Shown in pieces: positions 24,001 through 27,000 of a DNA stretch of 64,000 nucleotides. Every line of letters begins with the position of its first letter. The first letter of the stretch is position 1. The DNA comes from Escherichia coli. Lineage in GTDB: Bacteria > Pseudomonadota > Gammaproteobacteria > Enterobacterales > Enterobacteriaceae. The stretch lies in assembly GCF_003334785.1 (NCBI RefSeq), contig NZ_QOWV01000002.1; one strand, 5' to 3'. Position numbers: made by a program.

Positions 24001-27000
24001 CATGCCGATTTTGACAAATGCATCGCGAGTTTCTTCATTGAAGATAGGCATATATTCAAATGCCCACGCCGCAATACCTGTCCCGAGAATATTACCCAGC
24101 AGCACGACGCCCCATAACCGTATAAGTAAGCCGACGTTGCTCATTGTCGGTTTTTGCATGACGGGTAGTACCGCAGTCACGGTATTTTCGGTAAATAATT
24201 GCTGGCGGGCCATAATGACGATAATAAAACCAAAGGTATAACCGAGATTCTCCAGCAAGAAGCTGCCCGGCACACCTTCCAGTTCGACTTGAAATATCCC
24301 TTTTGCCAGTAACGAAGCGCCCATCGACAGACCCGCCGCAATGGCTGACCACAGTAGCGCCATTGCGTCGCGTTCCAGCTCTTTTTCACCATCCTGGCGG
24401 ATATGCTCATGAATTGCCATCGCCCGGGAGGGGAGTCGGTCTTCATCTATTTCTATTTTTTTGCCGCGCTCTTTTTCTTCGCTCTCAACTTCAATTTCGT
24501 CGCTGTGTTGATCAATTTTGTCGTTGTCCATGGTCTCTTCTCTTGAATTAGCACGTATAGCTAAAGCGTAGCGGCTTTTTTGCTCGCAACTGACGGGAGT
24601 TACTCTGAAAATGTAGAAAAGGCTGCGTTTGCCTTTTTCTGTTTCTATAGAATCAAGTAGCCTACAGGGCGGCGATTACCAGGCTATGATCAAATCAGCA
24701 AATCAGGGCGTCTGGACATCAGTTGACGTGCTGTTACAATCGCCCACACCTAAACAGGCGGATACGGTATCGTTCCGTCATGGATGGCAAACTGCATAAG
24801 CCATAAAAAAACAGGGAGACATTTATGAAGCTTCGCCTGTCGGCGCTTGCTCTGGGAACTACGCTTCTGGTGGGGTGTGCGAGTTCCGGTACAGATCAGC
24901 AAGGGCGTTCTGACCCGTTAGAAGGGTTCAACCGCACCATGTACAACTTCAACTTCAATGTATTAGACCCGTATATTGTTCGACCGGTCGCTGTCGCCTG
25001 GCGTGATTATGTTCCGCAACCGGCGCGTAACGGTTTGAGCAACTTTACTGGCAACCTTGAAGAACCTGCGGTGATGGTTAACTACTTCTTGCAGGGCGAC
25101 CCTTATCAGGGGATGGTCCACTTTACCCGCTTTTTCCTGAACACCATTTTGGGGATGGGCGGTTTTATTGATGTTGCAGGGATGGCGAACCCGAAACTGC
25201 AACGGACTGAACCTCACCGCTTCGGTAGTACGCTTGGTCATTATGGCGTGGGTTATGGGCCTTACGTTCAGTTACCGTTCTACGGTAGCTTCACGCTGCG
25301 TGATGACGGTGGTGATATGGCGGATGGTCTTTACCCGGTTCTTTCCTGGCTGACCTGGCCGATGTCTGTGGGTAAATGGACGCTTGAAGGGATCGAAACC
25401 CGCGCTCAGCTGCTGGATTCCGATGGTCTGCTGCGTCAGTCGTCCGATCCTTATATTATGGTGCGCGAAGCGTACTTCCAGCGTCATGATTTCATCGCTA
25501 ATGGCGGCGAACTCAAACCGCAGGAAAATCCGAACGCACAAGCGATTCAGGATGATTTAAAAGATATTGATTCTGAATAAGAAACAAATAAAAAAGGTGA
25601 GTCGCAAAACTCACCTTTTTTGTTGTTATCCCTCAATTACCACAAGTAAAAGGAGATAAACCGACAATGACCTAGACGTAATTATGTAAAAATACTGATG
25701 TTCGTCACTGACTATTTCCGATATTCAGCTGTTGAAAAATCAAAAAACTGGAAAAATAATTTTAAATATCATCAAAATTAACACCTGGCGCAGATGGTTG
25801 ATTAATTTCATTTTGATATTCAGCCTGGCGATTTTGAAGCCTTTCTTCAATTTTACCTTCGAGATCCTTAAAATGCTTATATATTTTTTGAGAATGGCCA
25901 ACGTTAATTTTGTTACCGACTAAAGTAGAAACTATTTCTTTTAGATGGTCGCATTTATATTTTGCATCGTCCACTTGAAAATCATATCTTATTGCTCGAC
26001 CATAACGTTTAAAAACGTCGTTTGGTTCTCTCAGTCTTTCCCCGTTGAGCTCGTTTACAACCTGATGATCGGAACCAGTTGCAAATGATTCTGCCATGAT
26101 AGCTTTACTGCTTTCAAACCACGCTGAAGCACTCCTGGCGTTTTCACTACAATATTGGGTGAGACTATCACCATTAATACGAATTCCTCTTTGAATGTGG
26201 TAGTCGTCCTGATCGTAGTAACCGAGAGATAAGTAATCATTTCCGTTTTTATTTTTAATTACAATAGCGAGAGAGTCGCCTTTTTTATCTTTACCGTACC
26301 AGGTAAATAAGTCCGTTGGTTCGCTTTTCCCGCTCTCATCAAATTCCGTTACCGTATGTCTGAGTTTGTGTGATATCTTATCGAAGATAAAACCAGGATC
26401 TCCATCATATATTTCTTTTAATGCGCTGAAGATCATTTCCTTGTTATTGATATCATGAGTCTTCTCAACTATGTTGTCATTAATGATAGTACGGACGAGT
26501 TCTTTGTCTTTATAGTTCGCAGGTAATTCTATTGGTTCTTGGTTGTCGATACCAATAGTAATATGGTCTGTATCATTGGAGTCAATATCAATATAAGTAA
26601 CTGAGGAATTATTAATATTAAATCTATAAGGATCGTCGTTTACTCGTATGGCGTTTTTTATAAGCTCAAGTAGATGTTTAATACAGGTGCTTATTCCTTC
26701 CTTACCATTAAAAAGGTTTTTGAACTCTTGTACTAATCCATTAACTTCATCATTGTTATTTTCATTGATGGATTCTGGGTAAGCTGCGCTGGTATTGTTG
26801 ATTGAAATAGATGGTAGCATGATTTTATTCCATTTTGATTGATTTGTTACAAATATATATTACCTAATGAAATAGACTATCAAAAAACGCTCATTTATTT
26901 AGAACCTATCTTTAATTTGAGTGTATGAGCGCACAATAGCCAGGGGGGGGGAGTATCCTGGAAATGCAGAAAAGTAAACTCTTTGAGAAGGACGAGCAGA

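Follow-up and report, generated by a model that had tools for sequence, protein, structure and literature searches.

The present analysis of Escherichia coli yfdF indicates that a run of nine G upstream of the gene is most probably a hot spot of neutral slippage, as opposed to a regulatory switch, and that the gene itself, yfdF/icaT, is an H-NS-silenced gene for a type III secretion substrate. The window, i.e., the whole 64-kb stretch of DNA analysed, matches K-12 genomes at 100% identity, and these have yfdF annotated at the same place. The MxiE box, the tract alleles, the tract position, and the presence/absence pattern were established here; secretion, MxiE dependence, and H-NS silencing come from published experiments; and we infer the transcription start, the order of substitutions, and neutrality. 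In K-12, H-NS keeps yfdF silent, with transcription arising only when MxiE and IpgC act at the MxiE box (26877 to 26893). Since K-12 is devoid of MxiE/IpgC, the gene should be silent at any tract length. The tract may have originated from an interrupted G/T-rich 9-mer that was turned to G by length-preserving T/A-to-G substitutions, in the putative order GGGAGGTTG, GGGGGGTTG, GGGGGGGTG, and GGGGGGGGG. Once the run exceeded a sufficient length, G residues would be gained and lost through replication slippage. Such changes are most likely neutral because the sequences required for MxiE-dependent promoter activity do not include the tract and the gene is silent in most hosts.

Features of the yfdF/icaT locus, in coordinates of the window
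Feature	Position	Strand	Remarks
Bidirectional intrinsic terminator hairpin	25590..25621	.	14-bp stem, A/T runs on either side; z = -5.4 to -5.8
yfdF/icaT islet, ~1.55 kb	25622..27176	.	Delimited by junction comparison with L003
yfdF = icaT CDS	25762..26820	minus	352 aa; one-repeat allele; annotated 'protein YfdF'
Putative -10 hexamer TATATT	26852..26857	minus	Deduced from mapped MxiE promoters
MxiE box TGAGCGTTTTTTGATAG	26877..26893	minus	MxiE/IpgC-dependent activator site; overlaps -35 region
G9 homopolymer (C9 on yfdF sense strand)	26943..26951	+	Polymorphic among strains
Distal islet part, GC-normal	26952..27176	.	GC 0.46
11-codon mini-ORF	27107..27142	+	AGGAGG Shine-Dalgarno; in distal islet part
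fadL-proximal terminator hairpin	27141..27167	.	Fold z = -6.1

An earlier, sequence-only reading had described yfdF as an orphan gene, more AT-rich than its flanks and with no recognisable domain. The term orphan no longer applies: yfdF is known from the literature as icaT (gem1) of Shigella flexneri and E. coli, at the same fadL-mlaA locus. According to PMC9241512 and PMC9769918, IcaT is a substrate secreted through the Shigella Mxi-Spa type III apparatus; H-NS silences icaT, and MxiE/IpgC activate it via a mapped MxiE box, the function of which was demonstrated by mutation. The strains in published work on secretion, MxiE/IpgC dependence, and H-NS silencing include DH5alpha, MC4100, and MG1655. 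The gene analysed here agrees in full with the published one, including the sequence and spacing of the MxiE box, the low GC, the absence from B2 strains, and, for some phylogroups, an internal 'addition' and truncation at the C terminus. Other E. coli carry longer alleles of 410 to 426 aa, in which a 65-aa tandem repeat is present in a second, diverged copy, as well as truncated ones. Orthology with S. flexneri icaT is borne out by two loci (L022 and L023) that are collinear with the window, at 46 to 58 substitutions from K-12 over ~1.56 kb. icaT, a silenced gene for a type III secretion substrate, is probably a fossil.

The remainder of that description holds. The GC content of the ORF is 0.355 (0.363 for the islet), against 0.52 for mlaA, 0.50 for fadL, and 0.482 for the window. 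Searches of YfdF against Pfam, NCBIfam, and PDB returned zero matches, in Pfam even at E ≤ 10, and no similarity to transposases was detected in any of the three; derivation of IcaT from a transposase has been proposed by the icaT authors. The sole weak match, to Csx21 in PADLOC (E = 0.022, 12.5 bits), was dismissed as noise. The protein is enriched in I, N, D, E, and K (pI 5.0), and its AlphaFold2 model, built on an alignment of 19 sequences with 84 to 92% identity, reaches a mean pLDDT of just 44.5. An N-terminal type III secretion signal has been published for IcaT, and the N-terminus encoded here, MLPSISINNTSAAY, is enriched in Ser, Ile, and Asn. IpaH proteins begin MLPINNN; a tblastn search of plasmids with the N-terminal 79 aa of YfdF found nothing on pINV.

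The MxiE box upstream of yfdF is an exact match, unique within the window, where 0.04 would be expected by chance. Its distance of 73 nt from the ATG, like its sequence, agrees with Table S2 of PMC9769918. In mapped MxiE promoters, 33 bp separate the end of the box from the mRNA 5′ end, and fragments spanning -57 to +11 sufficed for regulated promoter activity in 13 of 14 genes (PMC3299695). By the same geometry, yfdF transcription would start near 26844, leaving a 5′ UTR of ~24 nt and placing the box at -49 to -33, which fits the ipaH and osp promoters, where a 17-bp box is likewise followed by an AT-rich -10 region (PMC3299695). In contrast, the box has 4 mismatches to the plasmid consensus GTATCGTTTTTTTANAG, for which a search allowing up to 3 gave no match, and most resembles the chromosomal boxes of yccE and yjgL. 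This resemblance is limited to the box, since a distant blastn search of E. coli genomes found no paralogous copy of the promoter and N-terminal region.

The G9 tract lies 123 to 131 nt upstream of the yfdF ATG (26820), which bears out the previous estimate of ~120 bp, and 50 to 58 bp upstream of the MxiE box. Because the box ends 33 bp before the mRNA 5′ end in mapped MxiE promoters, the tract would occupy approximately -99 to -107. The same reading had put it in the putative promoter; with the start placed as above, it falls outside both the core promoter and the 5′ UTR, well upstream of the required -57 to +11 (PMC3299695). It sits where the AT-rich segment with the promoter (GC 0.27) gives way to GC-normal sequence (0.46). 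Furthermore, no other G/C run in the window reaches a length of 7. At least one G9 run appeared in 20 of 100 dinucleotide-preserving shuffles; the tract is therefore a genome outlier, but not by composition alone.

The earlier reading had suggested comparing tract length across E. coli genomes, and the comparison reveals ample variation, with at least 14 tract alleles among 24 sequenced loci. The states range from GGGAGGTTG and G6TTG, via G6-10TG, up to G7-10. Span lengths of 129 to 134 occur among 60 genomes sampled systematically from 4,294, and a second sample (60 of 3,527 genomes), queried with a 32-nt flank, gave the same picture; allele frequencies are thus estimates from systematic samples of 60. 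Tract length differs among haplotypes that are identical elsewhere across 1.5 to 2.9 kb. Four loci (L008, L009, L018, and L020) show 0 substitutions in ~2.9 kb, yet carry either G9TG or G10TG, and K-12 (G9) and another locus with G8 (L005) show 0 substitutions across 1.56 kb. Six tract alleles occur in one haplotype cluster whose members show no more than 7 substitutions between them across 1.55 kb. Pure G runs are found on at least four haplotype backgrounds, 15 to 47 substitutions apart.

It is improbable, on the whole, that the tract is stable and its apparent length variation consists mostly of homopolymer miscalls in long-read assemblies, though some records do look that way. At least 60 genomes match K-12 over 1,604 nt save for G8, and these include genuine K-12 laboratory strains: an MG1655 record, NEB Turbo, NEB 10-beta, the Dam/Dcm strain, CV601gfp, and BAA-196. 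Furthermore, TOP10 has G9 where NEB 10-beta has G8, and both are DH10B derivatives. Since K-12 laboratory strains disagree in this manner, part of the ±1 differences are probably assembly errors, and therefore the true rate of change is uncertain. However, the runs extend from G5 to G10, with differences of 2 to 4 nt that go beyond ±1 errors, and the TTG, TG, and A-interrupted states are substitutions, not homopolymer errors. Besides, related isolates from different projects share a common length (pig isolates, coordinate ~1476108; the chicken Z1323CEC series), and every O157:H7 entry in the first 60-genome sample agrees in span and identity signature with a G5TTG locus (L002).

Very improbable, in our view, is that slippage of the tract alters yfdF/icaT transcription and so generates heritable ON and OFF subpopulations. 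Such phase variation is known elsewhere: Neisseria porA and opc carry a phase-variable poly-G or poly-C in the -10/-35 spacer, and in Bordetella pertussis fim a phase-variable poly-C lies between the BvgA site and the -10. The yfdF locus has in common with these loci a G/C homopolymer of at least 9 that differs in length among isolates and precedes a gene whose product is secreted or interacts with the host. It is also of slip-prone length (~7 or more), and its length varies among close strains and otherwise identical haplotypes, as in contingency loci. The position differs: the Neisseria and Bordetella tracts sit in the core promoter or in the gap between activator and -10, whereas the yfdF tract sits ~50 bp upstream of the activator box, outside any core promoter, activator-to-promoter gap, 5′ UTR, or ORF if the start is placed correctly. 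As a further difference, its host has intact mismatch repair and a gene that is normally not expressible.

Two further observations could favor such a switch. The tract falls within the 365-bp upstream spacer of published reporter constructs, and by eye a weak alternative promoter-like pair, TTTCCA/TATTGT, flanks it on the minus strand, with a spacer that would equal 11 nt plus the tract length and would thus come to 17 to 18 nt only with tracts of 6 to 7. However, these hexamers are poor (4/6 each). A further ~42 bp separate the tract from the -57 limit of the sufficient MxiE promoter region, and it lies upstream of the activator box and not between the box and the -10. Moreover, neither K-12 nor most E. 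coli possess MxiE/IpgC, and the gene is in any case silenced by H-NS. Induction of icaT by MxiE/IpgC has been reported in MG1655, O157:H7, and S. flexneri BS176; these strains or their relatives show three tract states, i.e., G9 in MG1655, G5TTG in O157:H7, and G6TTG in S. flexneri (352-aa allele, L022).

A broader version of this idea, that the tract is a genuine contingency element whose recurrent change to a pure run reflects selection and whose length tunes H-NS silencing or an upstream promoter, giving heterogeneous IcaT expression in pINV-bearing Shigella/EIEC or hns-perturbed E. coli, has in its entirety only a slim chance of being right. Selection favoring length, instead of mutational bias or recombination, could account for the uninterrupted runs on several backgrounds, and one published scan reported positive selection on yfdF (P = 0.041). 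Were the tract to influence expression, it would count as a rare contingency locus of the promoter type in E. coli/Shigella.

Slimmest of all is the chance that the tract is a structural boundary limiting the spread of H-NS out of the AT-rich promoter toward the fadL terminator, or a preferred insertion sequence target: it lies exactly at the shift in GC, ISEc20 is inserted inside it in one locus (L014), ~85 genomes break at the same point, and an IS421 end adjoins it in another (L015), but older alleles (GGGAGGTTG, GGGTGGTTTG, and G5-6TTG) show an unchanged locus structure without a long run, and the ISEc20 cases may represent one clonal event. Under the preferred reading of a neutral hot spot in a silenced gene, the IS elements in the tract and in the gene, the truncated yfdF alleles, and a G6T mutation in the MxiE box of a Shigella boydii locus (L024) would be signs of decay, consistent with relaxed constraint.

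As the gene is already explained as icaT, little rides on this locus. In the accessible parts of PMC9241512 and PMC9769918, we came across no reference to the poly-G tract, to its series of alleles, or to insertion of IS elements there. What our study adds is that the G run is among the most changeable sites of the locus and a place where insertion sequences land, with a readable history in which point substitutions would have come first and slippage after. The tract offers a convenient natural marker for unstable homopolymers in E. coli and, given the disagreement among K-12 laboratory strains, for long-read homopolymer miscalls. It also cautions against taking any long homopolymer near a gene for a phase switch.

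The proposal that yfdF was acquired horizontally is upheld by its low GC, its presence/absence polymorphism, and the intact empty site in relatives; these features support a horizontally acquired, taxonomically restricted gene. The islet is carried by 4,270 of 5,426 complete E. coli genomes and is absent from ~1,130 of them. None of the 80 other genomes examined, which with few exceptions represent named Enterobacteriaceae species, has it. The empty site is the state of B2-type E. coli and of other Enterobacteriaceae, with a mlaA-fadL spacer of 61 bp in the empty-site strain L003 and of 41 to 68 bp in most of the 80 genomes. By comparison of the junctions with L003, the islet stands in place of ~11 bp of the ancestral spacer, with a weak TTATCC direct repeat at its ends. 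Among 1.84 billion representative proteins, no YfdF homolog was found outside E. coli/Shigella. A search of one genome per species likewise gave no relatives, the representative E. coli genome apparently being without the islet. The islet contains no integrase or transposase, and the search for a donor element gave no phage match and only mislabelled chromosomes as plasmid matches. YfdF strongly matches phrog_29678, yet no phage record encodes the protein, and the family probably derives from mis-delimited prophage sequence.

One promoter island listed for K-12 is at yfdF/mlaA (PMC3661553). The islet resembles H-NS-silenced xenogeneic islets and promoter islands of K-12 in being AT-rich, and differs from them in being single-gene; it lacks an integrase, and the insertion site itself contains no tRNA gene. 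Its distal part gave no Rfam match; the sole Rfam match, a sub-threshold hit of a miRNA family to the mlaA terminator hairpin, was rejected. The sequence-only reading had also placed yfdF between the terminators of mlaA and fadL, and both hairpins proved real by their fold z scores. The bidirectional hairpin is common to mlaA (+) and yfdF (-); it is kept in L003, and without the islet it also serves fadL.

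The G9 tract upstream of yfdF (C9 on the yfdF sense strand) probably marks a hot spot of neutral slippage, far upstream of an effector gene that is silenced and decaying, and this is the account our data support best. The window derives from E. coli K-12, its 1,605-bp mlaA-fadL interval being 100% identical to O16:H48/K-12 records annotated 'protein YfdF'. yfdF is icaT, originally called gem1. IcaT has been reported to be a substrate that the type III apparatus of S. flexneri secretes via an N-terminal signal (Silue & Campbell-Valois, PMC9241512). Furthermore, mutation of the 17-bp MxiE box confirmed its role, and H-NS silencing was demonstrated in Shigella, DH5alpha, and MC4100 (Hall et al., PMC9769918). 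The gene itself is thus already known and the tract polymorphism is a minor addition, of which the available portions of the icaT/yfdF papers make no mention.

The sequence-only reading had described yfdF as an AT-rich orphan lying between the mlaA and fadL terminators, with G9 about 120 bp upstream of its start. The composition is as described (GC 0.355 for the ORF versus 0.52 in mlaA, 0.50 in fadL, and 0.482 in the whole window), both hairpins are real, and the run lies where it was placed (see table). The protein is enriched in Ile, Asn, Asp, Glu, and Lys, with a pI of 5.0. Judged by sequence, it is a true orphan: no family was found in Pfam, even at E<=10, or in NCBIfam, and no sequence relative in PDB. 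A PADLOC match was at noise level only. A phmmer search of 1.84 billion representative proteins returned one full-length cluster (83% identity) and fragments, all at least 53% identical, and all source-named matches among those listed by two word-indexed searches came from E. coli or Shigella. 'Orphan' stands with respect to domain and family but not to function, as the gene is already characterised as icaT. Structure prediction, also proposed earlier, was run; the AlphaFold2 model (19-sequence alignment, 84-92% identity) reached a mean pLDDT of only 44.5. Within the whole window, GC over 1 kb is lowest (0.32) at ~20801-21860, beyond yfdC and tRNA-Arg, where K-12 annotation puts the prophage integrase gene intS.

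Features of the yfdF locus and tract states read in 24 loci (L-numbers, the same locus fetched from other genomes)
Feature	Position	Strand	Remarks
yfdF ORF	25762..26820	minus	352 aa
Longer allele, example	L012:192-1439		versus window 25762-26820
Bidirectional terminator hairpin, mlaA side	25590-25621	both	folding analysis
fadL own terminator hairpin	27141-27167		z = -6.1
MxiE box TGAGCGTTTTTTGATAG	26877-26893	minus	single occurrence in window
G9 run	26943-26951		123-131 nt upstream of ATG
GGGTGGTTTG, GGGAGGTTG			strains with 415-aa allele
G5TTG			O157:H7
G6TTG			L019; S. flexneri 352-aa allele L022
G7TTG			S. boydii
G6TG, G7TG, G8TG, G9TG, G10TG			five states, at least one E. coli genome each
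G7, G8, G10			three states, at least one E. coli genome each
G9			K-12; S. flexneri CP058771

The tract is the only G/C run of at least 7 in the 64-kb window; even so, 20 of 100 dinucleotide-preserving shuffles contained one or more G9 runs. Its length does differ across E. coli genomes, a comparison that the sequence-only reading had proposed. Besides the 24 loci, a 131-nt query covers 129-134 nt in the subject (systematic sample, 60 of 4,294 matching genomes) and a 55-nt query covers 54-58 nt (60 of 3,527). The exact G9 allele is present in roughly 900-990 genomes (the band of at least 99% identity holds 987, up to 85 of them partial matches), and span and identity signatures of 60 rows give an estimate of ~57% of sampled genomes with an uninterrupted run of at least 8.

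Whether this variation could be wholly artefact deserves consideration. At least 60 genomes, including records of MG1655, NEB Turbo, NEB 10-beta, a Dam/Dcm strain, CV601gfp, and ATCC BAA-196, are identical to K-12 over 1,604 nt save for G8. TOP10 has G9 versus G8 in NEB 10-beta, both of which we take to be DH10B derivatives. Such ±1 differences among K-12 laboratory-strain records, which speak for artefact, may stem from miscalled homopolymers in assemblies of long reads or from genuine laboratory-lineage changes. However, neither can explain the 2-4 nt differences, the substitution states, and the lengths that are consistent within groups of related field isolates; a wholly artefactual origin is therefore unlikely.

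The states GGGAGGTTG, GGGGGGTTG, GGGGGGGTG, and GGGGGGGGG are all 9 nt long, and therefore the run was built through base substitutions, with length changes superimposed. When islet sequences (the ~1.55-kb yfdF insertion) were compared pairwise after tract removal, L008, L009, L018, and L020 showed no substitutions over ~2.9 kb, yet carried G9TG or G10TG. Likewise, K-12 and L005 differ by none over 1.56 kb, yet have G9 and G8, and six tract states occur within a group of haplotypes that are no more than 7 substitutions apart over 1.55 kb. Since uninterrupted runs occur on at least 4 backgrounds, 15-47 substitutions apart, their recurrence points either to repeated T-to-G conversion beside the run or to recombination. 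Transient misalignment at homopolymers can convert an adjacent base into the repeated base; it would account for recurrent pure runs without selection.

The 5′ end of the box and the ATG are 73 nt apart, exactly the distance that Hall et al. list (PMC9769918). In mapped MxiE promoters the mRNA 5′ end is found 33 bp downstream of the box, and fragments that begin 8 bp before the box and extend to +11 (-57 to +11) had regulated promoter activity for 13 of 14 genes tested (PMC3299695). Applied to yfdF, this geometry would put the transcription start near 26844, a predicted -10 hexamer TATATT at 26857-26852, the minimal promoter edge at ~26901, and hence the tract at -99 to -107. The tract, 50-58 bp upstream of the box, would thus lie neither between box and -10 nor in the 5′-UTR, and its earlier assignment to the promoter region is not upheld. 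MxiE/IpgC, absent from K-12, reportedly induces the gene in MG1655, O157:H7 ATCC 43888, and S. flexneri cured of the virulence plasmid pINV. The tract in these strains or their relatives is G9 (MG1655), G5TTG (O157:H7), and G6TTG (S. flexneri); therefore, its state is not the on/off determinant. Phase variation through slippage of the tract, raised by the sequence-only reading, does not fit this predicted position, gained no positive evidence, and is very improbable.

In S. boydii L024, the box reads TGAGCTTTTTTTGATAG, a G6T change (equivalent of 26877-26893). As promoter activity is reported to require G6 (PMC3299695), the icaT promoter of this locus is probably non-functional. The chromosomal boxes of yfdF, yccE, and yjgL have a common variant form, TGAGCGWTTTTTGATAG / AGAGCGTTTTTTGATAT (Table S2, PMC9769918), with mismatches to the plasmid consensus at identical positions; beyond the box, no DNA similarity among the three promoters was detectable.

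Insertion sequences also reach the tract. In E. coli W60 (L014:3054-4535; equivalent of window 26943-26951), IS110-family ISEc20 lies inside it (G6-IS-G4), and in ~85 genomes the 55-nt query is broken at that point, reflecting either one clonal event or target preference. In E. coli NMBU-W12E19 (L015:798-3130), IS5 and a partial IS421 replace yfdF, and the IS421 end adjoins GGG-AGTATCC, so the junction is at the tract here too. Both cases favor a role as IS target, which, like that of an H-NS boundary, is speculative. Several K-12-like strains (search matches H1, H21, H166-H168) have the yfdF interval broken by IS5 and IS1 copies, which fits relaxed constraint on the locus.

Horizontal acquisition, suggested earlier, gains support from the AT-rich islet and from empty sites. 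Among 5,426 complete genomes of E. coli, 4,270 have at least 80% of the interval; the yfdF region is missing from ~1,130, judged by the 1,132 that lack a match to the 131-bp upstream segment. In the islet-free UPEC U15A (L003), the mlaA-fadL gap is 61 bp, with one bidirectional hairpin common to both genes. The mlaA neighbourhood was retrieved in 80 further genomes, including E. albertii, E. whittamii, Salmonella, Citrobacter, Klebsiella, Enterobacter, and Kluyvera. The spacer is 41-68 bp in most, and none of the 80 has yfdF or any of three non-coding islet pieces (219 bp beyond the tract, 131 bp from ATG to tract, 130 bp past the stop codon). Therefore, the empty site is the ancestral state and ~25622-27176 a single insertion, including the 225-bp GC-normal stretch adjoining fadL. 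No donor was found in phage and plasmid collections. TTATCC is directly repeated at the two islet ends (25622-25634, 27164-27176), in GTTGTTATCC ... CTTTATCC, and the empty site has CTTATTAAGCT; this very short repeat could be a remnant target duplication. Trabulsiella odontotermitis (L068:4257-6633) and Superficieibacter electus (L092:4257-6612) have unrelated ~2.4-kb insertions in the same convergent spacer, with ORFs of 278 + 194 aa in one and 475 + 145 aa in the other; the site has therefore been filled more than once.

K-12 YfdF is a short form with one copy of a 65-aa repeat. Many strains have 410-426 aa alleles owing to a second 65-aa segment, which repeats the one before it in tandem, in diverged form (51% identity over 45 aa, E=1e-11). 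The O157:H7 allele (L002:2895-3926) has both copies and an early stop leaving 343 aa, and that of L011 is truncated C-terminally to 337 aa; protein sequence divergence between alleles is 8-16%. A putative 11-codon mini-ORF (MRTLLSVKWGS; 27107-27142, plus strand), with a strong AGGAGG Shine-Dalgarno and its end inside the fadL terminator hairpin, remains an intact reading frame in each of the 22 islet-bearing loci examined, though with residue changes T/K, L/Q, V/L, and W/C.
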